A stretch of 64,000 nt of DNA, taken from NCBI GenBank assembly GCA_951804945.1, contig OX638161.1:47678001-47742000 (forward strand), in the 5' to 3' direction. Shown in pieces: positions 38,093 through 64,000 of the stretch. The first letter of the stretch is position 1, and each line of letters begins with the position of its first letter. The stretch is from Podarcis cretensis (lineage: Eukaryota). Position numbers and translations under genes: made by a program. The notes under the pieces are model-generated. The model did not search any database, was not told where the DNA came from, and was given only the letters and a program-made list of their open reading frames with translations.

Positions 38093-38144
<52 letters not shown>

Positions 38145-39600: not shown

Positions 39601-39705
39601 ACACGTGTGGTCCTTTTTTACAAAGTGGCTGGCAAATTAGGGAGGCTCTAGGGTGGTGAATTAGTGGCAGCAATGTCTGTTGTTTGTGGCAGCAATGTTT
39701 GTAGT

Positions 39706-40125
39706 TTGTAGCTGGACCATCAAAAAGGCTGATCACCGAAGAATTGATGCTTTTGAATTATGGTGCTGGAGGAGACTCTTGAGAGTCCCATGGACTGCAA
39801 GAAGATCAAACCTCTCCATTCTTAAGGAAATCAGCCCTGAGTGCTCACTGGAAGGACAGATCATGAAGCTGAGGCTCCAATACTTTGGCCACCTCATGAG
39901 AAGAAAAGACTCCCTGGAAAAGACCCTGATGTTGGGAAAGATGGAGGGCACAAGGAGAAGGGGACGACAGAGGACGAGATGGTTGGACAGTGTTCTCGAA
40001 GCTACAAACATGAGTCTGACCAAACTGCGGGAGGCAGTGGAAGACAGGAGTGCCTGGCGTGCTCTGGTCCATGGGGTCACGAAGAATCGGACACGACTAA
40101 ACGACTAAACAACAACAACAACAAC
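39706..40125 (+). mobile_element. 5'-truncated Bov-B (duplicate of 5636-6079)
   Basis: Same truncation point and TSD ATGTTTGTAGT. Confidence 0.95.
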
Positions 40126-40905: not shown

Positions 40906-40961
<56 letters not shown>

Positions 40962-42207: not shown

Positions 42208-43170
42208 ATGGAGAACCAAACAAAGATCAATGAGTTTTTACTGCTGGGATTCACTGAGAATGGCAAACTAGAGATATTTTTCTTTGTCCTTTTCTTAATC
42301 ATGTACCTGATGGCAGTAACGGGAAACATGATCATTATCACTATCACTCTCATGGATTTCCGCCTCAGGACACCCATGTATTTCTTCCTCCGGAATTATG
42401 CCATCTTGGAGATTGGATATACCACTGCTGCCATCCCAAAAGCATTGTTCAACCTTGCATCTGGCAGGAAAACAATCTCGTATGCTGGATGTTTAAGCCA
42501 ATCGTTTTTCTATTTCTTCCTGGGCACCACAGATTTCTTCCTGCTGACTGTGATGTCCTTTGACCGATATATGGCCATCTGCAACCCCCTAAGATATACC
42601 ACCATTATGAATGAGAAATTCTGCACACTTTTGGTGCTCTTCTCCTGGATTGGATCACTTGCTGTGATTTTGGCTCAAACTTTGCTATATATTCAATTTC
42701 CTATTTGTGGTTCAAACATCATTGACCATTTCTTCTGCGACAGCAAACCATTACTCCATCTTCTCTGTGGTGACACACATTTCTTGGAGCTCTCCGACTT
42801 TATTATTTCGGTGTTTACAGTACTGGGGACTTTTGTTATTACCGTTGTGTCCTATGTGAATATAATCTCAACTGTTCTCCACATCCCAAGTGCTGCAGGG
42901 AGGCAGAAGGCCTTTTCCACCTGTGCTTCCCACATCACCATTGTCACTGTCGCCTATGGAAGCTGCATCTCTATGTACATCATACCTGAACAAGATGGTG
43001 GGCAAAACTTCAACAAGGTTGTGGCCATTCTTAACAATGTGGTTTGTCCTCTAATGACCCCCTTTGTGTACAGCCTGAGGAACAGGCAGGTCCAAGATGC
43101 TTTGAAAAATGCGTTTGCCTGCAAGCATGTATTTAATAAAATGCAGAGAAACTCATGCAGTTTGAAATGA
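42208..43170 (+). CDS. Olfactory receptor, OR6-like (copy R2; R3/R1 chimera)
   Basis: Intact 320 aa; differs from R1 only at residue 19. Confidence 0.92.
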   Translation: MENQTKINEFLLLGFTENGKLEIFFFVLFLIMYLMAVTGNMIIITITLMDFRLRTPMYFFLRNYAILEIGYTTAAIPKALFNLASGRKTISYAGCLSQSFFYFFLGTTDFFLLTVMSFDRYMAICNPLRYTTIMNEKFCTLLVLFSWIGSLAVILAQTLLYIQFPICGSNIIDHFFCDSKPLLHLLCGDTHFLELSDFIISVFTVLGTFVITVVSYVNIISTVLHIPSAAGRQKAFSTCASHITIVTVAYGSCISMYIIPEQDGGQNFNKVVAILNNVVCPLMTPFVYSLRNRQVQDALKNAFACKHVFNKMQRNSCSLK

Positions 43171-43756
43171 TGGAAGGAAGAGGGAGTTATGAACTGGTTG
43201 AAATAGACCCATGATACTTCTTATGGAGTTTCAGAAGTCCAAATAAATAGTTTTCTCGTTAAAACAAAAGCCTTCACTGGTGTGGAAAACCTCTGAATTA
43301 TCACCAGATCCTTATTTCATATTCGGAAGATCATAGAATCATAGTTTTAGGCAGTGTTATTTTTCTATAAAAGAGAAGACGGACGTCATGGAGTTTGAAA
43401 CAATGGGAGGAAGGGGAAATGTGAAGTGACTAAAATAGGCTCATGAAACATTTTGTGGTATATCTGAAGCCCAAATAAACCAATTTCTTTTAAAATAAGC
43501 ATTGGTTTCCAAAAGTCAATGAACTTGGCATTTCATGTGTGCCGCTTGAATTTCAAGCAACAGAAAACTCTGTTCTACATAACTGGATACTGGTAATCAG
43601 TCTTACTCCCAGTATGGTTGTTTTAAGAAAACTTAAGCTTTTTGTGGACATTGTGTTTTTATTTCTTTCACACATACCAATCACTGTATCTTTTTCAAGG
43701 AAGAACTCTTTACTGTAGAAGATTAAGTAACCCTTTAAGTGCCACTAGGGGCAGCA

Positions 43757-44126
43757 GGTGGCGCTGTGGGTAAAAGCCTCAGCGCCTAGGGCTTGCCGAT
43801 CGAAAGGTCGGCGGTTCGAATCCCTGCGGCGGGGTGCGCTCCCGTCGTTCGGTCCCAGCGCCTGCCAACCTAGCAGTTCGAAAGCACCCCTGGGTGCAAG
43901 TAGATAAATAGGGACCGCTTACTAGCGGGAAGGTAAACGGCGTTTCCGTGTGCGGCTCTGGCTCTGGCTCTGGCTCTGGCCAGAGCAGCGATGTCACGCT
44001 GGCCACGTGACCCGGAAGTGTCTCCGGACAGCGCTGGCCCCCGGCCTCTTGAGTGAGATGGGCGCACCAACCCCAGAGTCTGGCAAGACTGGCCCGTACG
44101 GGCAGGGGTACCTTTACCTTTACCTT
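43757..44126 (+). mobile_element. Sauria SINE (duplicate)
   Basis: Matches 37172-37541. Confidence 0.93.
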
Positions 44127-44677
44127 TAGGGGGCAGCAAATATAACGAAATGCTGTGCAGTTTTGTCAGCACAACAACCGTCTGAGGCAGGAAGCCTGTG
44201 CCCCTGTTCATATATTCTGCCAGGGTGGTTCCAAGTCACTGGTCACACCTATACCATACATTTAATGCACTCTTATACCACTTTAAAAACCATGGCTTTC
44301 CCCAAAGATTTCTGGGAACTGCAGTTTACTGAGGGTGCTGGGAATTGCAGCTCTGCAAAGGTTTGACTAGCAACCCTCATGCGACCTCCGCTCTTGTGAA
44401 AACTGGGCCTTCTGGTTGGAATACCCTATTGTGAAAATGGACCCATTTTTAATCACTGCAGACCATCACTGAAACAGGCAAAGGAGAGGGGTGCTGCCTA
44501 TAGACAGAGCAAGGGTAGCTAACCTGTGGTCCTACCAAAGTTAACCACCACTGATGTACAGAGATCCAAAGATACATTTTTGCCATCTTCTAAAAGGGTC
44601 CTTGGGCAACATATATAACCACTCATTATAGTCGTTTTCTTGCTTTGCTCAACATGCTGACAGGTCCAGTGTGTATG

Positions 44678-44729
<52 letters not shown>

Positions 44730-45693
44730 ATCGGGGACTTCCTGCACTTGGCCAATTGTTTTCTGTCCTTAGTTATGGGTGCAACACATTCCACTGTGGG
44801 GGGCAGGGAGGGCTGAGTGGCAGAGCACCTGATTTCCACACAGAAAGTCCTGGGTTCAATTGCTACCAATTTCAGATAGGCCTGGGAAAGACTGGAATAA
44901 TCATCAGCTCCTAACCTGGAGATTGAATTTGGGTCGCTCTGAATCTGGCAGTGGCTGCTGGGAGCTGTGGTCCAAACATGTGGAGAACATGGGTTGGAGA
45001 AGGCTAATCTGTGCAAATTAACGCAGCTTTGTTCCACTTAAGAATGAACATCCTCCTCCCAAGGGACCTTTAAATAAAGCTTGTCTCACTAGTATTCCAT
45101 GGAGAGGATGATGGAAGACACCCAGCCATGATAAGATTTAAGTGAGACAGGAACTCTATATTATAGATCTGGTGCTGATAGCTGCATCATACCATGGTAA
45201 AGCATATTATTGCATATTATACTGCTTTGCTTTATGAAGGTATTCAGCGTTTTCTTATTTTCATTATGGGCAAACACATCAATTATTCCTTTTTCTGAGA
45301 GAGACATATCTAGGGTAGTATCAGTGCCAAGCTATATGATTAAATAGTTAACTAGTACAAAATTTGGGCAAATCAGCTTGAATTTACATATTTTTTTAAG
45401 TCTTCATGAAAAATATTCTCTTAATGTGCACATTTCTTCCTAATCTACATGTTTTTTTAAAGCAATTTATTATAATATAATTAACTTTGGCATGTTATTG
45501 TCACCAATGTGTGCATTTTTATGGACTTTCTACCCTAGTATATGCACATCTGCACCCACTACTTGGCTGGAGAACAGCATTCCAAAATTTCGAGAACTGA
45601 AATTTTTGAAAAGGACACCCCCCCCCCCCGTTTATGTGTTATTAGTTGTTTTGAAAGCCTTCAACAACACACATTTAACAACAATGTAATGTG

Positions 45694-46185
45694 AAGAATG
45701 TTGATGCTTTCCGTAACAACTTTGCTCCCACGCTTTTGCTGAGTCGGTTGTCCTTCTGTGGCGATAATGTCATAGACCATTTTTTCTGTGACTATGGTCC
45801 AATGATAAAACTTCCTTGAAATCAGGTGCAGCTCCTTCTGGCTCTGGAGGACTTTCTGTCTGGACCGGTGTTAGTCACCTCCTTTTCTGTCATGGGTCTC
45901 TCCGATGTCTACATCATTGCAACCATCTTGCACATGTACTCCATAAAAGGTCAGCAAAAGACGTTTCCAACCTGCGCTTCTCACAGCAGAGCCACATCCA
46001 TCTTTTATGGCAGTGCAATATTCATGTACTCCTTGCCCAGCCAGGGATGATCTGGGGATGTCCAGAAGGGAGTTGCAGTCCTTACTGGAGCGTTTACACC
46101 ATTTTTGAACCCTTTTATTTATAGTCTAAGGAATGAGAAGGTCAATGAAGCCTTCAAAGACTATCTGAAAAGGAGGAAATCTGAA
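45694..46185 (+). pseudogene. OR pseudogene fragment (duplicate)
   Basis: Matches 39110-39600. Confidence 0.85.
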
Positions 46186-46289
46186 CACGTGTGGTCCTTT
46201 TTTACAAAGTGGCTGGCAAATTAGGGAGGCTCTAGGGTGGTGAATTAGTGGCAGCAATGTCTGTTGTTTGTGGCAGCAATGTTTGTAGT

Positions 46290-46709
46290 TTGTAGCTGGA
46301 CCATCAAAAAGGCTGATCACCGAAGAATTGATGCTTTTGAATTATGGTGCTGGAGGAGACTCTTGAGAGTCCCATGGACTGCAAGAAGATCAAACCTCTC
46401 CATTCTTAAGGAAATCAGCCCTGAGTGCTCACTGGAAGGACAGATCATGAAGCTGAGGCTCCAATACTTTGGCCACCTCATGAGAAGAAAAGACTCCCTG
46501 GAAAAGACCCTGATGTTGGGAAAGATGGAGGGCACAAGGAGAAGGGGACGACAGAGGACGAGATGGTTGGACAGTGTTCTCGAAGCTACAAACATGAGTC
46601 TGACCAAACTGCGGGAGGCAGTGGAAGACAGGAGTGCCTGGCGTGCTCTGGTCCATGGGGTCACGAAGAATCGGACACGACTAAACGACTAAACAACAAC
46701 AACAACAAC
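46290..46709 (+). mobile_element. 5'-truncated Bov-B (duplicate)
   Basis: Same truncation point and TSD. Confidence 0.95.
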
Positions 46710-47489
46710 ATGTTTGTAGTAGGTTGAGGCCCTTTCCTTTGGTACAAAGATACAGATCCCATCTTCCAACTGGCAATATCAAGGCAACCTACAACCTGTT
46801 ATATGCCTACAGGAAAGCTGTATGTAGGACCTGAGTGCAGCAGCACCCAGAAAGCAGAGTGGTGGCTAAAAATTCCCTCGCTCCCCTTTCAACTTATTCC
46901 TTTTACAACCCCCCCCCCCCCAAAAAAAAAAAAAAACATTTTATGGCAGAAATCCTTAGCAATTTGGAATGGAATGGTAAACCTGCCATCCACCCAACAT
47001 GCCTTTACCTACCCTAAAATGTCCCTCATAAATCCTGCCTTTTCTGGGGCACAACTGATCTCATGAACAGGTATGTGTCCAGCCCTGTATAAATGTCAGG
47101 AAAGCACTCATTTCACTGCATAATAAGGGATTTATCAGTGTGTGAGAGCATATCTATATATATGTGTTTATCTGTTTGGCAGGACTATTATTTTTAAAGG
47201 ATCAAATTGATGTAGAAACAGAATTAAGGCATGTGAATGAGATGTGAGCCAAAATCCTATTTTGATTACATATAGTACATCTATAATACTCCCCTCTCCC
47301 TCTCCCGAAAAAACACCCTCAGATTGAAGGGGAAAGACCTGAGGGGTGAATGCCAGCTATGCTCTTTTGAAGGAAGACAGCTGAAGGCAGCCCTGTATCA
47401 GGAAATTTTTAATGTCTGATGTTTTACAATTTTTTATATATGCTGTAAGTGGCCCAGAGTGGCTGGGGAAACCCAGCCAGATGGGTGGG

Positions 47490-47545
<56 letters not shown>

Positions 47546-48791
47546 GTTGTTATTACTATTACTATTACTATTTACAGCAGAATTTGACCACTTTTGCCAT
47601 TATATTCATAGTATTCCCTCCCTTCCACCTGTGTTTCTTTAGGCACTGTGGCTGGACTCCAATTACACACTTTTTGAAATCTTAGAGCTCTCTCACAACC
47701 ATTTTGGGCAGGAAGGTTTCTATGTACTCTGACTTCAGGCCACAGATGCCGTACATGGTAATTTTCTGACCTGAGCTCCATGACAGTTAGCAAAGTTGTT
47801 GTAGCAATTTCCTGCCACAATCCCATTTGCTCAGCTTGTGATTTTGGTAATCCAACCATTGTCACAGTGAAGTCAGACTCTCTTTCAGGGCAGAGGCAGT
47901 CACAATACAATGGACATGGTGTGATGAGGTATTATGGAGCCTGAGGCAAAGGGCATGATGTCACCTTCCCTCCAGCTACAGAAACTGTCTATACTGTGGC
48001 AGCTGACTCTTACATCAACACTGGTGACACAGTGAAGTCCTCTGCCAAACTTTAGCTGAAGGAATATATGGCAGGGCTTGTGGTATCCACAACTCTATCC
48101 TCAACATTGCACTGATACCGTTCAGCATCTGTTCCATAAGGTAACTGCCTCACTCAGCCTAAGTTAGGACTGACCATGGTGATGTGCAAATTCACTAACT
48201 GTCTTCCTCATGCACTATCTCACAAACACTGTTATTAAGTCTTCATTAAGTGGAAGTACTAACCATTTGTGTGAATGTCAATAACCAATAAATATTGGTG
48301 GTCCCAATGAATTTCTTTGCAGATAAGTTGTCAGACAAGGACTTTGCAGGTGATCAGTTCAGTGTTTGCATGTGTGCTTGACTCTTTGCATGTGTGCTTT
48401 GGATAAAAATGGCACTTGTAAATGGACATTTTCCCTCTATCTTTGCAGGTATGGTCAGTTGAATCCAGTTGTGTGAATTTCCACAGATTATTTAGCTCAG
48501 CTGGAAGAGCATGAGACTCTTAATCTTATGGTCTTGGCTTCAGGTCCCACACTGGGCAAAAAGATTTTTGCATTGCAGGTGTTTTGACTAGATGACCGTT
48601 GTGGTCCCTTTAACTTCATGATTCTATGACTCCGATTCTGAGTCAATGTATGAAACAGGAGGCTGAACTATATGCTTACCTGGTCTGATCCAGGGAGGCT
48701 TGGCTTAACTTCATAATGATGAGGATGAGGATGATGCTACTTATCTATACTCATCTTTTGCCAGCAGATAACTCATGAAAGTCAAGACTTT

Positions 48792-49754
48792 ATGGAGAAC
48801 CAAACAAAGATCAATGAGTTTTTACTGCTGGGATTCACTGAGAATGGCAAACTAGAGATATTTTTCTTTGTCCTTTTCTTAATCATGTACCTGATGGCAG
48901 TAACGGGAAACATGATCATTATCACTATCACTCTCATGGATTTCCGCCTCAGGACACCCATGTATTTCTTCCTCCGGAATTATGCCATCTTGGAGATTGG
49001 ATATACCACTGCTGCCATCCCAAAAGCATTGTTCAACCTTGCATCTGGCAGGAAAACAATCTCGTATGCTGGATGTTTAAGCCAATCGTTTTTCTATTTC
49101 TTCCTGGGCACCACAGATTTCTTCCTGCTGACTGTGATGTCCTTTGACCGATATATGGCCATCTGCAACCCCCTAAGATATACCACCATCATGAATGAGA
49201 AATTCTGCACACTTTTGGTGCTCTTCTCTTGGATTGGGTCACTTGCTGTGATTTTGGCTCAAACTTTGCTATATATTCAATTTCCTATTTGTGGTTCAAA
49301 CATCATTGACCATTTCTTCTGCGACAGCAAACCATTACTCCATCTTCTCTGTGGTGACACACATTTCTTGGAGCTCTCCGACTTTATTATTTCAGTGTTT
49401 ACAGTACTGGGGACTTTTGCTATCACCGTTGTGTCCTATGTGAATATAATCTCAACTGTTCTCCACATCCCAAGTGCTGCAGGGAGGCAGAAGGCCTTTT
49501 CCACCTGTGCTTCCCACGTCACCATTGTCACTGTCGCCTATGGAAGCTGCATCTCTATGTACATCATACCTGAACAAGATGGTGGGCAAAACTTCAACAA
49601 GGTTGTGGCCATTCTTAACAATGTGGTTTGTCCTCTAATGACCCCCTTTGTGTACAGCCTGAGGAACAGGCAGGTCCAAGATGCTTTGAAAAATGCGTTT
49701 GCCTGCAAGCATGTATTTAATAAAATGCAGAGAAACACATGCAGTTTGAAATGA
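48792..49754 (+). CDS. Olfactory receptor, OR6-like (copy R3)
   Basis: Intact 320 aa. Confidence 0.96.
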   Translation: MENQTKINEFLLLGFTENGKLEIFFFVLFLIMYLMAVTGNMIIITITLMDFRLRTPMYFFLRNYAILEIGYTTAAIPKALFNLASGRKTISYAGCLSQSFFYFFLGTTDFFLLTVMSFDRYMAICNPLRYTTIMNEKFCTLLVLFSWIGSLAVILAQTLLYIQFPICGSNIIDHFFCDSKPLLHLLCGDTHFLELSDFIISVFTVLGTFAITVVSYVNIISTVLHIPSAAGRQKAFSTCASHVTIVTVAYGSCISMYIIPEQDGGQNFNKVVAILNNVVCPLMTPFVYSLRNRQVQDALKNAFACKHVFNKMQRNTCSLK

Positions 49755-50344
49755 TGGAAGGAAGAGGGAGTTATGAACTGGTTGAAATAGACCCATGATA
49801 CTTCTTATGGAGTTTCAGAAGTCCAAATAAATAGTTTTCTCGTTAAAACAAAAGCCTTCACTGGTGTGGAAAACCTCTGAATTATCACCAGATCCTTATT
49901 TCATATTCGGAAGATCATAGAATCATAGTTTTAGGCAGTGTTATTTTTCTATAAAAGAGAAGACGGACGTCATGGAGTTTGAAACAACGGGAGGAAGGGG
50001 AAATGTGAAGTGACTAAAATAGGCTCATGAAACATTTTGTGGTATATCTGAAGCCCAAATAAACCAATTTCTTTTAAAATAATCATTGGTTTCCAAAAGT
50101 CAATGAACTTGGCATTTCATGTGTGCCGCTTGAATTTCAAGCAACAGAAAACTCTGTTCTACATAACTGGATACTGGTAATCAGTCTTACTCCCAGTATG
50201 GTTTTTTTTAAGAAAACTTAAGCTTTTTGTGGACATTGTGTTTTTATTTCTTTCACACATCATTGTATCTTTGTATCTTTTTCAAGGAAGAACTCTTTAC
50301 TGTAGAAGATTAAATAACCCTTTAAGTGCCACTAGGGGGCAGCA

Positions 50345-50708
50345 GGTGGCGCTGTGGGTAAAAGCCTCAGCGCCTAGGGCTTGCCGATCGAAAGGTCGGC
50401 GGTTCGAATCCCTGCGGCGGGGTGCGCTCCTGTCGTTCGGTCCCAGCGCCTGCCAACCTAGCAGTTCGAAAGCACCCCTGGGTGCAAGTAGATAAATAGG
50501 GACCGCTTACTAGCGGGAAGGTAAACGGCGTTTCCGTGTGCGGCTCTGGCTCTGGCTCTGGCCAGAGCAGCGATGTCACGCTGGCCACGTGACCCGGAAG
50601 TGTCTCCGGACAGCGATGGCCCCCGGCCTCTTGAGTGAGATGGGCGCACCAACCCCAGAGTCTGGCAAGACTGGCCCGTACGGGCAGGGGTACCTTTACC
50701 TTTACCTT
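50345..50708 (+). mobile_element. Sauria SINE (duplicate)
   Basis: Same site; perfect TSD TAGGGGGCAGCA; one fewer GGCTCT unit. Confidence 0.93.
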
Positions 50709-50834
50709 TAGGGGGCAGCAAATATAACGAAATGCTGTGCAGTTTTGTCAGCACAACAACCGTCTGAGGCAGGAAGCCTGTGCCCCTGTTCATATATTCT
50801 GCCAGGGTGGTTCCAAGTCACTGGTCACACCTAT

Positions 50835-53800
50835 GTTGTTGTTGTTTAGTCGTTTAGTCGTGTCCGACTCTTCGTGACCCCATGGACCAGAGAACGCCAG
50901 GCACTCCTGTCCTCCACTGCCCCCCGCAGCTTGGTCAGACTCATGCTGGTAACCTCGAAAACACTATCCAACCATCTCGTCCTCTGTCGTCCCCTTCTCC
51001 TTGTGCCCTCCATCTTTCCCAACATCAGGGTCTTTTCCAGGGAGTCTTCTCTTCTCATGAGGTGGCCAAAGTACTGGAGCCTCAGCTTCACAATCTGTCC
51101 TTCCAGTGAGCACTCAGGGCTGATTTCCTTCAGAATGGAGAGGTTTGATCTTCTTGCAGTCCATGGGACTCTCAAGAGTCTCCTCCAGCACCATAATTCA
51201 AAAGCATCAATTCTTCGGCGATCAGCCTTCTTTATGGTCCAGCTCTCACTTCCATACATCACTACTGGGAAAACCATAGCTTTAACTATACGGACCTTTG
51301 TTGGCAAGGTGATGTCTCTACTTCTCAAGATGCTGTCTAGGCCTGACATTGCCCTTCTCCCAAGAAGCAGGCGTCTTTTAATTTCGTGGCTGCTGTCACC
51401 ATCTGCAGTGATCATGGAGCCCAAGAAAGTAAAATCTCTCACTGCCTCCATTTCTTCCCCTTCTATTTGCCAGGAGGTGATGGGACCAGTAGCCATGATC
51501 TTCGTTTTTTTGATGTTGAGCTTCAGACCATATTTTGCACTCTCCTCTTTCACCCTCAATAAAAGGTTCTTTAATTCCTCCTCACTTTCTGCCATCAAGG
51601 TTGTGTCATCTGCATATCTGAGGTTGTTGATATTTCTTCCGGCAATCTTAATTCCGGCTAGGGATTCATCCAGCCCAGCCTTTCGCATGATGAATTCTGC
51701 ATATAAGTTAAATAAGCAGGGAGACAAAATGCAGCCTTGTCGTACTCCTTTCCCAATTTTGAACCAGTCAGTTGTTCCATATCCAGTTCTAACTGTAGCT
51801 TCTTGTCCCACATAGAGATTTCTCAGGAGACAGATGAGGTGATCAGGCACTCCCATTTCTTTAAGAACTTGCCATAGTTTGCCATGGTCGACACAGTCAA
51901 AGGCTTTTGCATAGTCAATGAAGCAGAAGTAAATGTCTTTCTGGAACTCTCTAGCTTTCTCCATAATCCAGCACATGTTTGCAATTTGGTCTCTGGTTCC
52001 TCTGCCTCTTCTAAATCCAGCTTGCACTTCTGGGAGTTCTCGGTCCACATACTGCTTGAGCCTTCCTTGTAGAATTTTAAGCATAACCTTGCTAGCGTGA
52101 GAAATTAGTGCAATTGTGCGATAGTTGGAGCATTCTTTGGCACTGCCCTTCTTTGGGATTGGGATGTAGACTGATCTTCTCCAATCTTCTGGCCACTGCT
52201 GAGTTTTCCAAACTTGCTGGCATATTGAGTGTAGCACCTTAACAGCATCATCTTTTAAAATTTTAAATAGTTCAGCTGGAATACCATCACTTCCACTGGC
52301 CTTGTTATTTGCAGTGCTTTCTAAGGCCCATTTGACTTCACTCTCCAGGATGTCTGGCTCAAGGTCAGCAACCACACTACCTGGGGTATATGAGACATCC
52401 GTTTCTTTCTGGTATAATTCCTCTGTGTATTCTTGCCACCTCTTCTTGATGTCTTCTGCTTCTGTTAGGTTCTTTCCACTTTTGTCCTTTATTATGGAAA
52501 TCTTTGTACGAAATGTTCCTTTCATATCTCCAATTTTCTTGAACAGATCTCTGGTTCTTCCCATTCTATTGCTTTCCTCTATTTCTTTGCATTGCTTGTT
52601 TAAGAAGGTCTTCTTGTCTCTCCTTGCTATTCTTTGGAAATCTGCATTCAATTTCCTGTATGTTTCACGATCTCCCTTGCATTTTGCTTGCCTTCTCTCC
52701 CCCGCTATTTGTAAGGCCTCATTGGACAGCCACTTTGCTTTCTTGCATTTCCTTTTCATTGGGATGGTTTTCGTTGCTGCCTCCTGTATAATGTTACGAG
52801 CCTCCATCCATAGTTCTTCAGGCACTCTGTCCACCAAATCTAAATCCTTAAACCTGTTCCTCACTTCCACTGTATATTCATAAGGGATTTGACTTAGATT
52901 GTATCTTACCGGCCCAGTGGTTTTTCCTACTTTCTTCAGTTTAAGCTTGAATTTTGCTATAAGAAGCTGATGATCTGAGCCACAGTCAGCTCCAGGTCTT
53001 GTTTTTGCTGACTGTATAGAGCTTCTCCATCTTTGGCTGCAGAGAATATAATCAATCTGATTTCGATGCTGCCCATCTGGTGATGTCCATGTGTAGAGTC
53101 GTCTCTTGTGTTGTTGGAAAAGCGTGTTTGTGATGACCAGCTTGTTCTCTTGACAGAACTCTATTAGCCTTTGACCTGCTTCGTTTTGATCTCCAAGGCC
53201 AAACTTGCCAGTTGTTCCTTTTATCTCTTGACTCCCTACTTTAGCATTCCAATCCCCTATAATGAGAAGAACATCCTTCTTTGGTGTCACTTCTATAAGG
53301 TGTTGTAAGTCTTCATAGAATTGGTCAATTTCAGTTTCTTCAGCACCAGTAGTTGGTGCATAAACTTGGATTACTGTGATGTTAAAAGGTCTGCCTTGGA
53401 TTCGTATCGAGATCATTCTATCATTTTTGAGATTGCATCCCAGTACAGCTTTTGCCACTCTTTTGTTGACTATGAGGGCCACTCCATTTCTTTTACGGGT
53501 TTCTTGCCCACAGTAGTAGATATGATGGTCATCCGAACTGAATTCACCCATTCCCGTCCATTTTAGTTCACTGATGCCCAGGATGTCAATATTTATTCTT
53601 GCCATCTCATTTTTGACCACCTCCAACTTACCCATGTTCATGGTTCTTACATTCCAGGTTCCTATGCAATATTTTTCTTTACAGCATTGGACTTTCCTTT
53701 CGCTTCCAGGCATATCCGCAACTGAGCGTCCTTTCGGCTTTGGCCCAGCCGCTTCATCAGCTCTGGATCTACTTGTACTTGCCCTCCGCTCTTCCCCAGT

Positions 53801-54057
53801 AGCATGTTGGACGCCTTCCGACCTGAGGGGCTCATCTTCTGGCGTCATAACTTTTATATGCCTGTTGTCTTTGTCCATGGAGTTTTCTTGGCAGGGATAC
53901 TGGAGTGGCTTGCCGGTTCCTCCTCCAGGTGGATCACGTTTGGTCAAAACTCTCCACTATGACCTGTTCATCTTGGGTGCCCTGCTCGGCATAGTTCATA
54001 GCTTCTCTGAGTTCTTCAAGCCCCTTCGCCACGGCAAGGCAGTGATCCATGAAGGGG
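50835..54057 (-). mobile_element. Full-length Bov-B (RTE clade) LINE, ~3.2 kb
   Basis: Bov-B-type 5' end (CATGGATCACTGCCTTGCCGTGGCGAAGGGG), single ORF, (CAA)n tail, TSD GGTCACACC; empty sites at ~37665 and ~44250. Confidence 0.97.
50846..53878 (-). CDS. Bov-B ORF: APE endonuclease plus reverse transcriptase (1010 aa from the first ATG)
   Basis: GTWNVR, LGISE, QVYAPT, GDWNAK, QIDYI, SDH (endonuclease); QAGFR, FIDYAKAFD, GVRQGCILSP, LRYADD (RT); no stops. Confidence 0.96.
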   Translation of the reverse strand: MDKDNRHIKVMTPEDEPLRSEGVQHATGEERRASTSRSRADEAAGPKPKGRSVADMPGSERKVQCCKEKYCIGTWNVRTMNMGKLEVVKNEMARINIDILGISELKWTGMGEFSSDDHHIYYCGQETRKRNGVALIVNKRVAKAVLGCNLKNDRMISIRIQGRPFNITVIQVYAPTTGAEETEIDQFYEDLQHLIEVTPKKDVLLIIGDWNAKVGSQEIKGTTGKFGLGDQNEAGQRLIEFCQENKLVITNTLFQQHKRRLYTWTSPDGQHRNQIDYILCSQRWRSSIQSAKTRPGADCGSDHQLLIAKFKLKLKKVGKTTGPVRYNLSQIPYEYTVEVRNRFKDLDLVDRVPEELWMEARNIIQEAATKTIPMKRKCKKAKWLSNEALQIAGERRQAKCKGDRETYRKLNADFQRIARRDKKTFLNKQCKEIEESNRMGRTRDLFKKIGDMKGTFRTKISIIKDKSGKNLTEAEDIKKRWQEYTEELYQKETDVSYTPGSVVADLEPDILESEVKWALESTANNKASGSDGIPAELFKILKDDAVKVLHSICQQVWKTQQWPEDWRRSVYIPIPKKGSAKECSNYRTIALISHASKVMLKILQGRLKQYVDRELPEVQAGFRRGRGTRDQIANMCWIMEKAREFQKDIYFCFIDYAKAFDCVDHGKLWQVLKEMGVPDHLICLLRNLYVGQEATVRTGYGTTDWFKIGKGVRQGCILSPCLFNLYAEFIMRKAGLDESLAGIKIAGRNINNLRYADDTTLMAESEEELKNLLLRVKEESAKYGLKLNIKKTKIMATGPITSWQIEGEEMEAVRDFTFLGSMITADGDSSHEIKRRLLLGRRAMSGLDSILRSRDITLPTKVRIVKAMVFPVVMYGSESWTIKKADRRRIDAFELWCWRRLLRVPWTARRSNLSILKEISPECSLEGQIVKLRLQYFGHLMRREDSLEKTLMLGKMEGTRRRGRQRTRWLDSVFEVTSMSLTKLRGAVEDRSAWRSLVHGVTKSRTRLND

Positions 54058-55228
54058 GGTCACACCCCTTTTTTTAAAAAGTGGTATAAGAGTGCATACC
54101 ATACATTTAATGCACTCTTACACCACTTTAAAAACCATGGCTTTCCCCAAAGATTTCTGGGAACTGCAGTTTACTGAGGGTGCTGGGAATTGCAGCTCTG
54201 CAAAGGTTTGACTAGCAACCCTCATGCGACCTCCGCTCTTGTGAAAACTGGGCCTTCTGGTTGGAATACCCTATTGTGAAAATGGACCCATTTTTAATCA
54301 CTGCAGACCATCACTGAAACAGGCAAAGGAGAGGGGTGCTGCCTATAGACAGAGCAAGGGTAGCTAACCTGTGGTCCTACCAAAGTTAACCACCACTGAT
54401 GTACAGAGATCCAAAGATACATTTTTGCCATCTTCTAAAAGGGTCCTTGGGCAACATATATAACCACTCATTATAGTCATTTTCTTGCTTTGCTCAACAT
54501 GCTGACAGGTCCAGTGTGTATGTTATATATATATATATATATATAAATAACAATCGGGGACTTCCTGCACTTGGCCAATTGTTTTCTGTCCTTAGTTATG
54601 GGTGCAACACATTCCACTGTGGGGGGCAGGGAGGGCTGAGTGGCAGAGCACCTGATTTCCACACAGAAAGTCCTGGGTTCAATTGCTACCAATTTCAGAT
54701 AGGCCTGGGAAAGACTGGAATAATCATCAGCTCCTAACCTGGAGATTGAATTTGGGTCGCTCTGAATCTGGCAGTGGCTGCTGGGAGCTGTGGTCCAAAC
54801 ATGTGGAGAGCATGGGTTGGAGAAGGCTAATCTGTGCAAATTAACGCAGCTTTGTTCCACTTAAGAATGAACATCCTCCTCCCAAGGGACCTTTAAATAA
54901 AGCTTGTCTCACTAGTATTCCATGGAGAGGATGACGGAAGACACCCAGCCATGATAAGATTTAAGTGAGACAGGAACTCTATATTATAGATCTGGTGCTG
55001 ATAGCTGCATCATACCATGGTAAGGCACATTATTGAATATTATACTGCTTTGCTTTATGGACTTTCTATCCTAGTATATGCACATCTGCACCCACTACTT
55101 GGCTGGAGAACAGCATTCCAAAATTTCGAGAACTGAAATTTTTGAAAAGGACACCCCCCCCCCCGTTTATGTGTTATTAGTTGTTTTGAAAGCCTTCAAC
55201 AACACACATTTAACAACAATGTAATGTG

Positions 55229-55720
55229 AAGAATGTTGATGCTTTCCGTAACAACTTTGCTCCCACGCTTTTGCTGAGTCGGTTGTCCTTCTGTGGCGAT
55301 AATGTCATAGACCATTTTTTCTGTGACTATGGTCCAATGATAAAACTTCCTTGAAATCAGGTGCAGCTCCTTCTGGCTCTGGAGGACATTCTTTCTGGAC
55401 CGGTGTTAGTCACCTCCTTTTCTGTCATGGGTCTCTCCGATGTCTACATCATTGCAACCATCTTGCACATGTACTCCATAAAAGGTCAGCAAAAGACGTT
55501 TCCAACCTGCGCTTCTCACAGCAGAGCCACATCCATCTTTTATGGCAGTGCAATATTCATGTACTCCTTGCCCAGCCAGGGATGATCTGGGGATGTCCAG
55601 AAGGGAGTTGCAGTCCTTACTGGAGCGTTTATACCATTTTTGAATCCTTTTATTTATAGTCTAAGGAATGAGAAGGTCAATGAAGCCTTCAAAGACTATC
55701 TGAAAAGCAGGAAATCTGAA
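55229..55720 (+). pseudogene. OR pseudogene fragment (duplicate)
   Basis: Paralog of 39110-39600. Confidence 0.85.
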
Positions 55721-55824
55721 CACGTGTGGTCCTTTTTTACAAAGTGGCTGGCAAATTAGGGAGGCTCTAGGGTGGTGAATTAGTGGCAGCAATGTTTGTT
55801 GTTTGTGGCAGCAATGTTTGTAGT

Positions 55825-56244
55825 TTGTAGCTGGACCATCAAGAAGGCTGATCACCGAAGAATTGATGCTTTTGAATTATGGTGCTGGAGGAGACTCTTG
55901 AGAGTCCCATGGACTGCAAGAAGATCAAACGTATCCATTCTTAAGGAAATCAGCCCTGAGTGCTCACTGGAAGGACAGATCGTGAAGCTGAGGCTCCAAT
56001 ACTTTGGCCACCTCATGAGAAGAAAAGACTCCCTGGAAAAGACCCTGATGTTGGGAAAGATGGAGGGCACAAGGAGAAGGGGACGACAGAAGACGAGATG
56101 GTTGGACAGTGTTCTTGAAGCTACAAACATGAGTCTGACCAAACTGCGGGAGGCAGTGGAAGACAGGAGTGCCTGGCGTGCTCTGGTCCATGGGGTCACG
56201 AAGAATCGGACACGACTAAACGACTAAACAACAACAACAACAAC
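55825..56244 (+). mobile_element. 5'-truncated Bov-B (duplicate)
   Basis: Same truncation point and TSD. Confidence 0.95.
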
Positions 56245-56999
56245 ATGTTTGTAGTAGGTTGAGGCCCTTTCCTTTGGTACAAAGAGACAGATCCCGTCTT
56301 CCAACTGGCAATATCAAGGCAACCTACAACCTGTTATATGCCTACAGGAAAGCTGTATGTAGGACCTGAGTGCAGCAGCACCCAGAAAGCAGAGTGGTGG
56401 CTAAAAATTCCCTCGCTCCCCTTTCAACTTATTCCTTTTACAACCCCCCCCCCAAAAAAAAACCATTTTATGGCAGAAATCCTTAGCAATTTGGAATGGA
56501 ATGGTAAACCTGCCATCCACCCAACATGCCTTTACCTACCCCAAAATGTCCCTCATAAATCCTGCCTTTTCTGGGGCACAACTGATCTCATGAACAGGTA
56601 TGTGTCCAGCCCTGTATAAATATCAGGAAAGCACTCATTTCACTGCATAATAAGGGATTTATCAGTGTGTGAGAGCATATCTATATATATGTGTTTATCT
56701 GTTTGGCAGGACTATTATTTTTAAAGGATCAAATTGATGTAGAAACAGAATTAAGGCATGTGAATGAGATGTGAGCCAAAATCCTATTTTGATTACATAT
56801 AGTACATCTATAATACTCCCCCCTCCCTCTCCCGAAAAAACACCCTCAGATTGAAGGGGAAAGACCTGAGGGGTGAATGCCAGCTATGCTCTTTTGAAGG
56901 AAGACAGCTGAAGGCAGCCCTGTATCAGGAAATTTTTAATGTCTGATGTTTTACAATTTTTTATATATGCTGTAAGTGGCCCAGAGTGGCTGGGGAAAC

Positions 57000-57176
57000 N
57001 NNNNNNNNNNNNNNNNNNNNNNNNNNNNNNNNNNNNNNNNNNNNNNNNNNNNNNNNNNNNNNNNNNNNNNNNNNNNNNNNNNNNNNNNNNNNNNNNNNNN
57101 NNNNNNNNNNNNNNNNNNNNNNNNNNNNNNNNNNNNNNNNNNNNNNNNNNNNNNNNNNNNNNNNNNNNNNNNNNNN
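57000..57176. other. Assembly gap (177 N)
   Basis: N run; the paralogous position (~47473-47587) is a (TA)n/(TTG)n/(TTA)n microsatellite. Confidence 0.99.
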
Positions 57177-58377
57177 CCACTTTTGCCATTATATTCATAG
57201 TATTCCCTCCCTTCCACCTGTGTTTCTTTAGGCACTGTGGCTGGACTCCAATTACACACTTTTTGAAATCTTAGAGCTCTCTCACAGCCATTTTGGACAG
57301 GAAGGCTTCTATGTACTCTGACTTCAGGCCACAGATGCCGTACATGGTAATTTTCTGACCTGAGCTCCATGACAGTTAGCAAAGTTGTTGTAGCAATTTC
57401 CTGCCACAATCCCATTTGCTCAGCTTGTGATTTTGGTAATCCAACCATTGTCACAGTGAAGTCAGACTCTCTTTCAGGGCAGAGGCAGTCACAATACAAT
57501 GGACATGGTGTGATGAGGTATTACGGAGCATGAGGCAAAGGGCAGGATGCCACCTTCCCTCTAGCTACAGAAACTGTCTATACTGTGGCAGCTGACTCTT
57601 ACATCAACACTGGTGACACAGTGAAGTCCTCTGCCAAACTTTAGCTGAAGGAATATATGGCAGGGCTTGTGGTATCCACAACTCTATCCTCAACATTGCA
57701 CTGATACCGTTCAGCATCTGTTCCATAAGGTAACTGCCTCACTCAGCCTAAGTTAGGACTGACCATGGTGATGTGCAAATTCACTAACTGTCTTCCTCAT
57801 GCACTATCTCACAAACACTGTTATTAAGTCTTCATTAAGTGGAAGTACTAACCATTTGTGTGAATGTCAATTACCAATAAATATTGGTGGTCCCAATGAA
57901 TTTCTTTGCAGACATGTTGTCAGACAAGGACTTTGCAGGTGATCAGTTCAGTGTTTGCATGTGTGCTTGACTCTTTGCATGTGTGCTTTGGATAAAATTG
58001 GCACTTGTAAATGGACATTTTCCCTCTATCTTTGCAAGTATGGTTAGTTGAATCCAGTTGTGTGAATTTCCACAGATTATTTAGCTCAGCTGGAAGAGCA
58101 TGAGACTCTTAATCTTAGGGTCTTGGGTTCAGGTCAAACACTGGGCAAAAGGATTTTTGCATTGCAGGTGTTTTGACTAGATGACCCTTGTGGTTCCTTT
58201 AACTTTATGATTCTATGACTCCGATTCTGAGTCAATGTATGAAACAGGAGGCTGAACTATATGATTCTGTGGTCTGATCCAGGCAGGTTTGGCTTAACTT
58301 CATAATGATAATGATAATAATGCTAATTATCTATACTAATCTTTTGCCAGCAGATAACTCATGAAAGTCAAGACTTT

Positions 58378-59340
58378 ATGGAGAACCAAACAAAGATCAA
58401 TGAGTTTTTACTGCTGGGATTCACTGAGAACGCCAAACTAGAGATATTTTTCTTTGTCCTTTTCTTAATCATGTACCTGATGGCAGTAACAGGAAACATG
58501 ATGATTATCACCATCACTCTCATGGATTTCCGCCTCAGGACACCCATGTATTTCTTCCTCCGGAATTATGCCATCTTGGAGATTGGATACACCACTGCTG
58601 CCATCCCAAAGGCGTTGTTCAACCTTGCATCTGGCAGGAAAACAATCTCGTATGCTGGATGTATAAGCCAATTGTTTTTCTATTTCTTCCTGGGCACCAC
58701 AGATTTCTTCTTGCTGACTGTGATGTCCTTTGACCGATATGTGGCCATCTGCAACCCCCTAAGGTACGCCACCATCATGAATGAGAAATTCTGCACACTT
58801 TTGGTGCTCTTCTCTTGGATTGGGTCACTTGCTGTGATTTTGGCTCAAACTCTGCTATATGTTCAATTTCCTATTTGCGGCTCAAACATCATTGACCATT
58901 TCTTCTGCGACAGCAAAGCATTACTCCATCTTCTCTGTGGTGACACACATTTCCTAGAGCTCTCCAGCTTTATTCTTTCAGTGTTTACACTACTGGGGAC
59001 TTTCGCTATCACCGTTGTGTCCTATGTGAATATAATCTCAACTGTTCTCCACATCCCAACTGCTGCAGGGAGGCAGAAGGCCTTTTCCACCTGTGCTTCC
59101 CACATCACCATTGTCACTGTCACCTATGGAAGCTGCATCTCTATGTACGTCATACCTGAGCGGGATGGTGGGCAAAACTTCAACAAGGTTGTGGCCGTTC
59201 TTAACAATGTGGTTTGTCCTCTAATGACCCCCTTTGTGTACAGCCTGAGGAACAGGCAGGTCCAAGATGCTTTGAAAAATTCTTTTGCCTACAAGCATGT
59301 ATTTAATAAAATGCAGAGAAACTCATGCAGTTTGAAATGA
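58378..59340 (+). CDS. Olfactory receptor, OR6-like (copy R4)
   Basis: Intact 320 aa. Confidence 0.96.
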   Translation: MENQTKINEFLLLGFTENAKLEIFFFVLFLIMYLMAVTGNMMIITITLMDFRLRTPMYFFLRNYAILEIGYTTAAIPKALFNLASGRKTISYAGCISQLFFYFFLGTTDFFLLTVMSFDRYVAICNPLRYATIMNEKFCTLLVLFSWIGSLAVILAQTLLYVQFPICGSNIIDHFFCDSKALLHLLCGDTHFLELSSFILSVFTLLGTFAITVVSYVNIISTVLHIPTAAGRQKAFSTCASHITIVTVTYGSCISMYVIPERDGGQNFNKVVAVLNNVVCPLMTPFVYSLRNRQVQDALKNSFAYKHVFNKMQRNSCSLK

Positions 59341-59649
59341 TGGAAAGAAGGGGGAGTTATGAACTGGTTGCAATAGACCCATGATACTTCTTATGGAGTT
59401 TCAGAAGCTGAAATAAATAGTTTTCTCATTAAAACAAAAGCCTTCACTGGTGTGGAAAACCTGTGAATTATCACCAGATCCTTATTTCATAGTCAGAAAA
59501 TCATAGAATCAGAGTTTTAGGCAGTGTTATTTTTCTATAAAAATTAATGCCAGAACTCACCATGAACCTCTCTCTTGCTCTCTTATAATGGCCATGGTGC
59601 CCACCTGAGAAGTGCCAGAACTGAGTTTTGATGAACTTTGGCTGACAAG

Positions 59650-60115
59650 GACCCTCGTAGCTTCGGGACCACCTCTCCTAGTATGTCCCACAGAGGACCT
59701 TTCTTGGAGAACATCTTGGAGATCCCAGGCCACAGGGAGGTTAAGCTGGCCTCAACCAGAGCCAGGGCTTTTTCGGGCGTGGCCCATATCTGGTGGAATG
59801 CTCTGTCACAAGAGACTAGGGCCCTGCCGGACTTGACATCTTTCTGCAGGGCCTGCAAGACAGAGCTGTACCACCAGGCCTTTGGCCAAGGCACAGTCTA
59901 TCCCCCTCTCTCCTTTATCTAATCCTCATAAAACTCTAACCCAATGGTTGCCATTAATTTGATTCTGAACTCATTTTAGAATGAATGTATTTTAATTAAT
60001 TGACTGTGTGATTTTATGTACACTGTACTATTTTTACTTGTTGTTACCCGCTCTGAGCCCAGCTTTGGCCGGGGAGGGTGGGATACAAATAAATTATTAT
60101 TATTATTATTATTTA
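59650..60115 (+). mobile_element. L2 LINE 3' fragment
   Basis: RAFSGVAHIWWNALS..R....LTSF....KTEL...AF is the L2 ORF2 C-terminal signature; (TTA)n tail. Confidence 0.8.
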
Positions 60116-60269
60116 TATATTAAAAAAAACCTGGTTTGAGGCCTTGTAGGCCAAATCTGCATCCAGGGCTGGAAATCTAGAGCAAGCCAACCTGGAACAT
60201 ATGTGGCCATTCATGGTAGGAAGCATTCACCACAACACTTTGCTCCGATGGAAGCTGCATCTCTATGTA

Positions 60270-60508
60270 CAGTGGTACCTCGAGTTAAGTACTTAATTCG
60301 TTCCAGAGGTCCGTTCTTAACCTGAAGCTGTTCTTAACCTGAAGCATCATTTTATCTAATGGGGCCTCCTCCTGCCGCGCCACCGGAGCATGATTTCTGT
60401 TCTCATCCTGAAGCAAAGTTCTTAACCCGAGGTAATATTTCTGGGTTAGCGGAGTCTGTAATCTGAAGCGTATGTAACCTCAAGCGTATTTAACCCGAGG
60501 TACCACTG
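60270..60508. mobile_element. Tc1/mariner MITE inserted in an OR fragment
   Basis: TA TSD; TIR CAGTGGTACCTCG; empty site ATGTACAT near 9013-9020. Confidence 0.9.
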
Positions 60509-61020
60509 TACATGAAACCAGAGCAGTACAGCCTTTCAGTAAGGCTGTGGCTGTTCTCAACATTGTGGTTTGTCCTCTTATGACCACTTCTGTGTACAGC
60601 TTTGTGGAACAAGCAGGTGAAATATGCTTTGAAATATGCTTTTGACTGAAAACATGTTTTTAAGTTCATGGAGTTTGAAACAACGGGAGGAAGGGGAAAC
60701 GTGAACTGACTAAAATAGGCTCATGAAACATTTTGTGGTATATCCGAAGCCCAAATAAACCAATTTCTTTTAAAATAATCATTGGTTTCCAAAAGTCAAT
60801 GAACTTGGCATTTCATGTGTGCCGCTTGAATTTCAAACAACAGAAAACTCTGTTCTGCATAACTGGATACTGGTAATCACTCTTACTCCCAGTATGGTTG
60901 TTTAAAGAAAACTTAAGCTTTTTTGAGGAAGTTGTGTTTGTATTCCTTTCACCCATACCAATCATTGTATTTTTTTCAAGGAAGACCTCTTTACTGTAGA
61001 AGATTAAATAACCCTTTAAG

Positions 61021-61037
61021 TGCCACTAGGGGGCAGC
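61021..61037 (+). promoter_or_regulatory. CTCF-like motif TGCCACTAGGGGGCAGC
   Basis: Consensus match; same site in every unit. Confidence 0.55.
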
Positions 61038-61535
61038 ACTATGCAGTTTTGTAAGCACAACAACCACCTGAGGCAGGAAGCCTGTGCCCCTGTTCATATA
61101 TTCTGCCAGGGTGGTTACAGTTCTCTGGTCACACCTATACCATACATTTAAAGCACTTTTATACCACTTTAAAAACCATGGCTTTCCCCTAAGATTTCTG
61201 GGAACTGTAGTTTACTGAGGGTGCTGGGAACTGCAGCTCTGCAAAGGTTTTACTAGCAACCCTCATGCGACCTCTGTTCTTGTGAAAACTGGGGCTTCTT
61301 TTGGAATACCTTTTGTGAAAATTCCAATTTGTGAGAGAAACAAATCAATAAAACGGGTCACCATGTGCTTCTAATGCATACACATTTTTGCCAGCATCTA
61401 CAGAACATTGTTGGCATTCAGAATCCCCCACCCCCATTTAATCTGGGTTTATCCTTTCAGGGGGAATTCTAATAAACCACACACACTTACAATATCTGAA
61501 CAACTCCTTTTATATTACTAAGAGTTGTCTTCAAT

Positions 61536-61740
61536 ACAAAATAAAAAAAATTCCTTCCAGTAGCACCTTAAAGACCAACTAAGTTAGTTCTAGGTATGAG
61601 CTTTCGTGTGCATGCACACTTCTTCAGATACCAACGAAAGCTCATACCTAGAACTAACTTAGTTGGTCTTTAAGGTGCTACTGGAAGGAATTTTTTTATT
61701 TTGTTTTGACTATGGCAGACCAACACGGCTACCTATCTAT
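61536..61740. mobile_element. Penelope-like element remnant with inverted pLTR structure
   Basis: ~71-bp inverted arms; 13-bp TSD AGTTGTCTTCAAT; empty site at ~1058-1070. Confidence 0.85.
61593..61632 (-). ncRNA. Minimal type I hammerhead ribozyme motif
   Basis: GGUAU CUGAAGA A GUGUGC AU GCACAC GAAA GCUC AUACC: core CUGANGA/GAAA, stem I GGUAU/AUACC, stem II, palindromic AGCU for stem III. Confidence 0.78.
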
Positions 61741-62897
61741 AGTTGTCTTCAATGTTAGTCCTACTCAGAGTAGACCCATTGAAATTAATATAGCTGCCAA
61801 TTTAGGCCAATTAATTTCAGTGGGTAGAACTTAGTTCGCTACAGCCCTAAGCTCACATCCGGAGGAACCCAAAAAAGGCTCCTATCAGGTATCCTGGTGA
61901 AAAAATAGTAAAAATGGCTGATCTGTTGCTAGATATGGTTGCTGGTTACAATCTGCTTCATTGCATCAACGTTGGACAAACTTGATGAGCCTTTCTCCCT
62001 CTAATATTTTTCTCATGAAATCTGCCAGTGATAGCTACTGTGTGAAAAATCAGCTCTGGACGGGGAAAAGGCACTGGGATGATGTAAGAAAACCACTCAG
62101 ATGTCATACCCTCCGAATTCTGGAGATTTGATACCAGGACGTTTGTCTTCTGGGATGCACACCCAGGCGAGTCATGTGACCCATGCCTCACTGTACCTTG
62201 ATAAAAGTGCTTTTTCTTGCATGGGGGGAAAAGGGATGTCCCATTTTTTCTGGGATACACAACCGGTATGTGATATTTCGAAGATAAATCTTAACGTGGA
62301 AACCAGCTCCACAACCAAAATCTGATGAGGCCTAATTCAACCTGAACCTTCCCCTAGAAACAACTTTGAGAGCAGCTGGCTTGTATTGAGTGCCTCAGCT
62401 TGTGCAGTCCTGACTTTGAACATAGGATGGAGCTGTACCATTATGAAGATTGGTGGCAATTCAGAATTACTCCTTCCTTAATGTTGTCCCCTTTCCCACC
62501 TTGAAATGTGTGGGGGGGGGGGAGAAGAGAGAGAGGGAGGGAGGGAGGGAGGGAGGGAGGGAGATACGAACTGGATTGGACTTTACTTTTGAATGTTTGG
62601 CCCAACTCTTCTTGTTACCTGGTGCAGTGGAGACCAAAGGCTTGGAGGGGCTCTTAGGCGACGTAGCTCCTGGGAAGAGGGATTGATTGTTAAGTCACTC
62701 TGAGAACTGTAGTCCAGAAAGGGGAATAGGAGTCACCTAACAACTCTCCTTGCCCTTAACAAGCTACAGTTCCCAGGATGCTTTTGGGGGAGTCATGACT
62801 GCTTAAAGTGGTATGATACTGTTTTAAATGCATAGTGCAGATGTGGTCTAAGTTAGGATCAGCACATGAAATCAAACATCCTAAAGCTCTTGATATT

Positions 62898-62930
<33 letters not shown>

Positions 62931-63754
62931 TATATATGTATAATTTTATAGCAGGGAAAAAACCTGTTACTGCATTTACAGTAGGAGAAAAGTTAGCAAA
63001 ATCCTTTTGATCATCTCCCTTGGCAGAAGTTTCAGACTGTAAAGCACTTTAATTAAGTCAATAAGTTTTGTAGGCCACTGGGGTTATCTTGCACAAATGT
63101 GAACAAAATTAATCTATAGGCATGGGACTTAATCAGGCAACAAAGTTTTGAAGAGTTAGTAGCAAACTTTTTGTTCTCTTGGTACATCAGGGGAAGCAGA
63201 TAATGAGGTTGGTTTGGAAGGGGAAATCAATTAGCATTTGTTTTGCTAACTGCACACTAATCAGAGAATGAGGCAGAAAAGTTTTGTTTTGTTCGTGTGT
63301 GTTTTTAATTGAAAACAACAGACTTTGATTGTCCATCAAGAGTCAAGTGGTAAAGTGGAAAAGCAAACTAATACATTTTTGATAAAAATAACATACCAAC
63401 CATCAAAAAAACACCCAATGAATTGATGTTAAATAACAACATTCACATAGGTAAAATCTTATTCTATTTATTTCATTCTAAGTATTATTGCATTTTATAT
63501 CCCACATTTCCTCCAAGGAGCTCAATATTCTCCCCTCCCCCTTTTATCCTCACAAGATTCCTGCGAGGCGGGTTCGAGGAAAAGAGAGTGACTGAACCAA
63601 AGTCACCCAGTGATTTGGTCTTCCGGGTCCTAGTCTGGCCCTCTGACCATTGCGCCACCCATAGGCCACTAGTCCATGACTACTAGCCAATGATAGCACT
63701 CACCATAATGACTGAATGCTATCTCCAGGACCAGAAGCATCATGCTTCTGAATA

Positions 63755-63995
63755 CAGTGGTACCTCTAGTTACGAACTTAATTCGTTCCAGAGGTCCATT
63801 CTTAACCTGAAACTGTTCTTAACTATTGACGTGCTTTCACTAATGGGGCCTCTTGCTGCCGCTGTGCCGCTGGCACAAGATTTCCATTCTAATCCTGAGG
63901 CAAAGTTCTCAACTCAAGGTAACTCTTCCAGGTTAGCGGATTCTGTAACCTGAAGCATTTGTAACATGAGGAGTTTGTAACTCAAGGTACCACTG
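63755..63995. mobile_element. Tc1/mariner (Tigger-like) MITE
   Basis: TA|CAGTGGTACCT...AGGTACCACTG|TA. Confidence 0.87.
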
Positions 63996-64000
63996 TACCA

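Follow-up and report, generated by a model that had tools for sequence, protein, structure and literature searches.

Penelope-like elements (PLEs) are described as inserting together with an adjacent inverted, 5'-truncated copy, with a tail of 30-40 bp that is usually at one end, and within a target-site duplication (TSD) (PMC8557442; PMC3846280). Their minimal hammerhead ribozymes are reported to occur mostly as stand-alone stumps, with some opposite-strand pairs and with copies in turtle and snake; the monomer is inactive and the dimer has low activity (Cervera and De la Pena 2014; PMC4209133), and dimer cleavage was the subject of the work of Lunse et al., as reviewed in PMC6765202. In the account given of the anole PLE, the purified protein nicks and extends both strands, reverse transcription begins at two sites that bracket the tail, uncleaved RNA is used, and the hammerhead cuts only when protein is added (PMC11167929). 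At the RNA level, lizard Penelope is described as massively hyper-edited (PMC5625713), and Penelope is given as a top A-to-I target in Xenopus tropicalis (PMC10636886). The loop-3-less motif, opposite-strand motif pairs, inverted pLTRs, and the editing of lizard Penelope are already in print, and these include the two features that the original prediction for the present locus treated as established, i.e., minimal hammerheads and inverted pLTRs of PLEs (PMC4209133; PMC8557442; PMC3846280).

The window analyzed in this study, i.e., the whole stretch of 64,000 nucleotides from Podarcis cretensis (GenBank assembly GCA_951804945.1, contig OX638161.1, positions 47,678,001 to 47,742,000 of the forward strand), is an olfactory-receptor (OR) cluster. 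It contains a 205-base insert (61536-61740) that is flanked by two 13-bp repeats, both on the plus strand (61523-61535 and 61741-61753), which are identical at 13 of 13 positions and form the left and right TSD. The insert is not a simple palindrome; it consists of two copies of one repeat that face each other with their 5' ends, the 3' ends being at the outer borders. The left copy (61536-61631, minus strand, 96 nt) is inverted, 5' truncated, and tail-less, and its 5' end, which is matched by loose ends of family members at 61631, is the start of hammerhead helix I. A head-to-head junction of 2 nt (61632-61633), which matches the family majority on neither side in the contig comparison, connects this copy to the forward, 5'-truncated copy on the plus strand, in which a hairpin arm that includes the 3' half of the hammerhead (61634-61704) is followed by a one-sided 36-nt extension (61705-61740). 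This extension is the PLE "tail", as judged from a comparison of the two copies and from family 3' ends at 61706-07 and beyond 61735. The tail itself folds into a weak stem with an AC-rich loop (-4.1 kcal/mol), which is no better than shuffled sequences.

Apart from a single T within a T-run, the left arm (61536-61607, 72 nt) and the right arm (61634-61704, 71 nt) are perfectly reverse complementary, and they form the longest inverted repeat among the 43 pairs in the window whose arms are less than 300 nt apart. The folding z of the hairpin is -18.5 on the minus strand and -19.6 on the plus strand, and none of 200 shuffles is equally stable. A minority allele (about 18% of the DNA depth) is common to both arms at 61592 and 61649. 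The empty paralogous target site lies at 1058-1070 on the minus strand, 681 bp past the stop of the OR at 1751-2713; in the flank alignment it carries a single 13-mer and no insert, and its flanks are 92% (203/220) and 87% (188/215) identical to those of the insert. The near-identity of the arms points to a young insertion, and the insert is a real, likely young insertion of two head-to-head stumps. Arms in inverted repeat with one indel, a 13-bp TSD, an empty site at about 1058-1070, and a recent insertion some 2.2 kb downstream of the neighboring OR (R4) had all been proposed in the original prediction, and the alignments and distances given here agree with each of them.

The neighboring OR (58378-59340, plus strand; an open reading frame) ends 2,196 bp before the insert, and the hammerhead is antisense to it. 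A 3' fragment of an OR pseudogene (60514-60673, plus strand) is located between the two. Elsewhere in the window, a tandem duplication at 34385-50834 consists of ~6.6-kb units of 97-99% identity with one OR gene each, and further OR copies and fragments are spread over the window. The minus strand at 50846-53956 carries a stop-free LINE frame of 1,036 codons with APE endonuclease and reverse transcriptase (RT) domains, which is unrelated to the PLE stump. The insertion struck the end of another high-copy repeat, which has a short internal palindrome (61741-61845; 967-1070 at the paralogue).

The minimal type I hammerhead lies on the minus strand at 61593-61632, and its predicted cut is between 61598 and 61597. 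It comprises, in order, helix I, CUGAAGA, an extra A, a palindromic helix II (5 bp with a 4-nt loop), GAAA, and the AGCU helix III, and the core positions C3-U4-G5-A6-N7-G8-A9, G12-A13-A14-A15.1, and U16.1-H17 are all present. Loop 3 is absent, and the palindromic helix III is the AGCU at 61602-61599 (minus strand). Positions 9 and 10.1 are separated by an extra base, G10.1 pairs with C11.1, and helix I is 4-5 bp long. A gapped core pattern matched the window only here, and none of 100 shuffles gave a match. The isolated motif folds into helices I and II at -10.1 kcal/mol, with 13 of 200 shuffles as good. In the dimer minimum-free-energy (MFE) structure, two motif copies prefer to pair via the helix II palindrome and AGCU; helix II has 5 bp in the monomer, and its 14-nt palindrome can pair fully between two copies at -25.2 kcal/mol.

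At position 61632, the depth of contigs that carry the letter of the window is about 0.6% of the mean depth of the neighboring bin. The family contigs depart from the window sequence after 61631, which indicates that the fifth pair of stem I (G 61632) was probably made by the junction, and helix I of the family is 4 bp. The predicted stem I of 5 bp therefore holds for 4 bp family-wide, and its fifth pair is the part that probably does not. The complete core on the minus strand, its 3' half on the plus strand (present from 61634), and a loop-less stem III that pairs between two copies via AGCU were found as had been described. In the covariance check, the Rfam search gave 0 hammerhead matches to the motif, and its miRNA and sRNA matches were below the gathering score. 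The best Rfam match over the region, mir-559, scored 63 bits against a gathering score of 95 and was rejected as a generic hairpin match.

The repeat family is very abundant, with roughly 1e5 stumps of which this copy is one. In 4 of 4 public contig sets, depth peaks over the insert at 0.8-1.8e5 times the flank value; contig depth is not a copy number and was taken as an order of magnitude only. Of 261 joints, the 15 listed all connect the left copy with the right copy, at points that vary, which means that other head-to-head insertions with other truncations exist. There are two classes of family 3' ends, tail-less and tailed, with ends at 61706-07 (50 and 47 contigs) and past 61735 (87 contigs). 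A pyrimidine tract and CAG precede helix I in the family, and sequence agreement in this upstream part is only 0.42-0.45 in DNA. As regards polymorphism of this insertion, contigs of sets X1 and X3 extend from the flank 25 and 23 nt, respectively, into the insert, which is below the 31-nt threshold, and a gap in set X4 is uninformative. Several other head-to-head junctions (61583-61716) have depths of 170-740 against about 35 for the flank, and identical junctions may be common to several copies, as re-amplified units, duplications, or recurrent joins.

Two short ENA contigs, P0003 (535 bp) and P0005 (566 bp), carry spurious open reading frames (ORFs) that span the family between helix I and the tail. 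In both contigs, the 5' end of the family abuts the inverted head of a SINE-like repeat, and in P0003 a forward SINE-like head also follows the tail. The same repeat, which we take to be a SINE, occurs twice in the window, at 6186-6411 (plus strand) and 30736-30968 (minus strand). These contigs are either a composite PLE/SINE insertion or short-contig chimeras combined with an ORF-calling bias.

The insert carries a minimal hammerhead, head-to-head 5'-truncated copies, a 36-nt tail at one end, and a TSD with an empty site, and the Penelope-like reading put forward for it fits every anatomical mark that could be tested. The RT/GIY-YIG parent gene was not reached, and PLE membership is therefore argued from this noncoding anatomy. 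Pfam found no GIY-YIG domain and only an APE-type LINE RT in 36 frames, which comprised 33 of the 40 stop-free frames of at least 60 amino acids in 54000-64000 (the 7 left out overlap the OR), the OR, and two LINE ORFs. A phmmer search with a 32-codon stop-free stretch gave six matches, i.e., the 2 spurious ORFs through the family and 4 unrelated sequences, and follow-up searches gave no longer relative. Pattern scans gave 0 matches in viral sequences, 0 in prokaryote genomes, and, in metagenomes, 0 in a first scan and 1 locus in a second (L001). The latter is a degenerate, related minimal hammerhead at 5995-6040 of an animal-like metagenome contig, among whose 37 listed ORFs no obvious PLE frame was seen when judged by eye. 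A motif search in three supplements of PMC11167929 gave no match.

We consider it very probable that two 5'-truncated copies of this abundant repeat were joined head to head within the 13-bp TSD, likely by a PLE endonuclease and RT. The PLE protein would have nicked both strands 13 nt apart, and each 3'-OH would have primed cDNA synthesis on uncleaved sense RNA. One cDNA would have started at the tail-distal site (61740) and the other at the tail-proximal site (61536, the counterpart of 61704). At the tail-proximal start, 4 of 5 bases of the target end agree with the RNA, and this match may have helped the left priming. The cDNAs would have stopped after 107 and 96 nt and then been joined 5' to 5'. 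The two halves overlap by 71 nt and carry the same minority allele, so the template would have been either two RNAs of one source or a single tandem transcript. Both halves read through the scissile bond, which argues that the templates were uncleaved and that cleavage did not set the ends. An L1-type twin-primed inversion consists of nonoverlapping halves of one RNA, and it was rejected on account of the 71-nt overlap. Both 5' truncations are at hammerhead helix boundaries, i.e., the start of helix I (61631) and the 3' foot of helix II (61634), as if the RT had stalled at a structure, in what is a single case.

In a different origin, the hairpin would not be the product of two priming events but a fold-back unit: a DNA element resembling a MITE, or a unit that primed itself and was then re-copied whole. 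The arms are indeed nearly perfect, and the depths of some other junctions, at 5-20 times that of the flank, could mean that units were re-amplified; the ends, however, are asymmetric because of the 36-nt tail, and the center differs among copies. MITEs have terminal inverted repeats at both ends and form a fixed unit, whereas a 13-bp TSD combined with a right end that lacks a terminal inverted repeat, as found here, does not resemble a MITE. Self-priming on an antisense template, which has been proposed for head-to-head PLE copies (PMC3846280), is a rival route to the same product, and it would alter the route but not the PLE identity. Overall, a fold-back origin appears unlikely. The very high copy number, a unit shorter than about 150 nt, the family agreement of only 0.42-0.45 upstream of helix I, and the lack of an ORF linked to the repeat would also suit a non-autonomous, retrozyme- or SINE-type retroelement with a hammerhead, which would spread via self-cleaved or circular RNA and have no close PLE parent. 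Retrozymes, however, are described with canonical hammerheads in head-to-tail tandems (PMC7229834), in contrast to the minimal motif and head-to-head copies found here; both copies read through the cut site, and RNA ends do not pile up there. This origin is improbable in our view, while a non-autonomous derivative of a PLE is possible and would fit the preferred explanation, PLE insertion, too.

In folding calculations on the full minus-strand transcript, stem I has a pair probability of about 0, and imposing it costs 22.7 kcal/mol; removal of the upstream arm raises the probability to about 0.4. The ribozyme fold is predicted to be lost in the hairpin, which in this model leaves the hammerhead dead at this locus, in line with the earlier proposal that the long hairpin sequesters the ribozyme strand. 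In the parent element, the hammerhead would likely cut only as a dimer or with the help of protein, and the hairpin of the insert is likely a by-product of insertion that buries the minimal hammerhead of the copy. A function at the locus itself, with the insert serving the 3' region of the OR as a signal (dsRNA or editing) or as a switch for cleavage, has some circumstances in its favor: the OR stop and the insert are separated by 2.2 kb, the paralogous site and the stop of its OR by only 0.7 kb, and RNA reading through the insert would fold into a hairpin of about -129 kcal/mol. The OR is on the plus strand, however, which means that its read-through RNA would carry the antisense of the ribozyme, and the stretch from the OR stop to the insert contains eight AATAAA/ATTAAA hexamers. 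The copy also looks young, and the paralogue is without it. Such a function is accordingly very improbable.

The RNA of the family was examined in three raw runs of a related species, for which the tissue is not specified and which may lack the insert. Aligned reads numbered 1,362, 1,242, and 700 out of 12.8, 12.6, and 11.0 million read, respectively. Read starts and ends do not pile up anywhere in the three runs, including at the predicted cut site, which is a weak test in fragmented libraries. The left flank (61460-61519) has 0 reads in these three runs of the related organism, a result that is uninformative on expression here. A 44-nt GT-AG stretch (61675-61718) was rejected as an intron, as no such joint is among the 15 of 123 listed and the RNA depth has no dip.

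Of the 73 differences between RNA and DNA, 40 were listed, and two with too few RNA reads were dropped. Among those listed, 17 have a DNA share below 1%, and 14 of these 17 are A>G or T>C. The reads were assigned to strands by mate direction, assuming the usual dUTP orientation, and 13 of the 14 rows lean in the same direction, with A-to-G in one read class and T-to-C in the other (each P < 0.01), as expected for editing. All 13 strand-separated rows are at arm positions, and these rows collapse to 9 sites, 6 in sense RNA and 3 in antisense RNA. The 5' neighbor is U at 7 of the 9 sites and G at none, compared with a 5' U at 14 of 47 arm adenosines (Fisher P = 0.0014). This pattern is the signature of ADAR, and the RNAs of the family are likely ADAR-edited duplexes. 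The RNA is from organism B and the compared DNA is from organism A, i.e., editing was not matched within one individual; in the contigs of organism B itself, only 3 T>C places exceed 5% over 661 bases, which are too few to account for the six T>C rows. The remaining three RNA-only rows (of 17) show changes of other kinds whose strand bias is equally strong, which indicates that variants of single expressed copies also occur, and strand separation is weaker in the single-cell run. At least 5 RNA reads span a head-to-head junction (among 15 of 123 joints listed); with so few, duplexes could also arise from separate, oppositely oriented neighbors. A fossil editing scar in the present copy was rejected, as the genomic letter at each of the 9 sites is the unedited one. 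The dsRNA that had been anticipated is therefore supported for the family, by the strand-specific A-to-G changes, and not for this locus. Copies caught in host transcripts would form duplexes, which are likely edited by ADAR.

The lizard and X. tropicalis studies (PMC5625713; PMC10636886) likewise give Penelope RNA as a major A-to-I substrate, and a depletion of G 5' of the edited A, as seen here, is part of their description. In the parts of both papers available to us, editing is not tied to head-to-head insertion, and in the corresponding parts of PMC5625713 self-folding is offered as an explanation only for frog Harbinger. A literature search, mostly of journals that need no subscription and judged by titles, the opening of abstracts, and passages, found no paper that links Penelope editing to head-to-head insertion. 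We tentatively suggest, at somewhat less than even confidence, that the insertion chemistry of Penelope mass-produces self-contained RNA hairpins that are a main source of reptile ADAR substrates. In this scheme, a dimeric enzyme may copy each half from an RNA of its own, occasionally a host SINE RNA, as hinted by the two short ENA contigs. If true, these hairpins would be the reptile counterpart of inverted Alu pairs without the need for a second insertion, they would account for the rank of Penelope as the most hyper-edited LINE-class repeat of lizards, and the hammerhead of every such insertion would be silenced by the insertion itself. The many copies of the family provide a large sample for estimating the share of the reptile ADAR substrate load that is due to head-to-head PLE insertions.

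The single copy matters little, being one of roughly 1e5 stumps of a kind already known; its value is as a clean natural example of the model of PLE priming on both strands from two start sites, with the empty site beside it. Compared with the minimal hammerheads described in PMC4209133, the motif likewise lacks loop 3 and has the palindromic 15.2-16.2, the extra base 9/10.1, the G10.1-C11.1 pair, and a helix I of 4-5 bp. Helix II is 7-8 bp in the schistosome motifs described, whereas it is 5 bp with a palindromic loop here, and unlike the motif pairs reported in PMC4209133, the second copy has only the 3' half and abuts the first. The insert shares the head-to-head arrangement, the one-end tail, and the TSD with the EN+ PLE unit (pLTR, inverted 5'-truncated copy, and tail) as described in PMC8557442 and PMC3846280, but it contains no ORF, its halves are stumps of ~100 nt, and its TSD is 13 bp, which is longer than the 8-10 bp given for rotifer PLEs. 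The pyrimidine tract and CAG of the family weakly resemble the intron end described at helix I of Drosophila virilis Penelope. The layout also resembles that of PAc (Poseidon_Ac) of Anolis carolinensis (Frangieh et al. 2024; PMC11167929), likened here by features and not by sequence identity: in the account of that element, the hammerhead is just upstream of a tail with two RT starts, no RNA-seq ends are reported at the cut site, and a Met is at the loop II position, the first two as in the present insert and the last as in the ORFs of P0003 and P0005.
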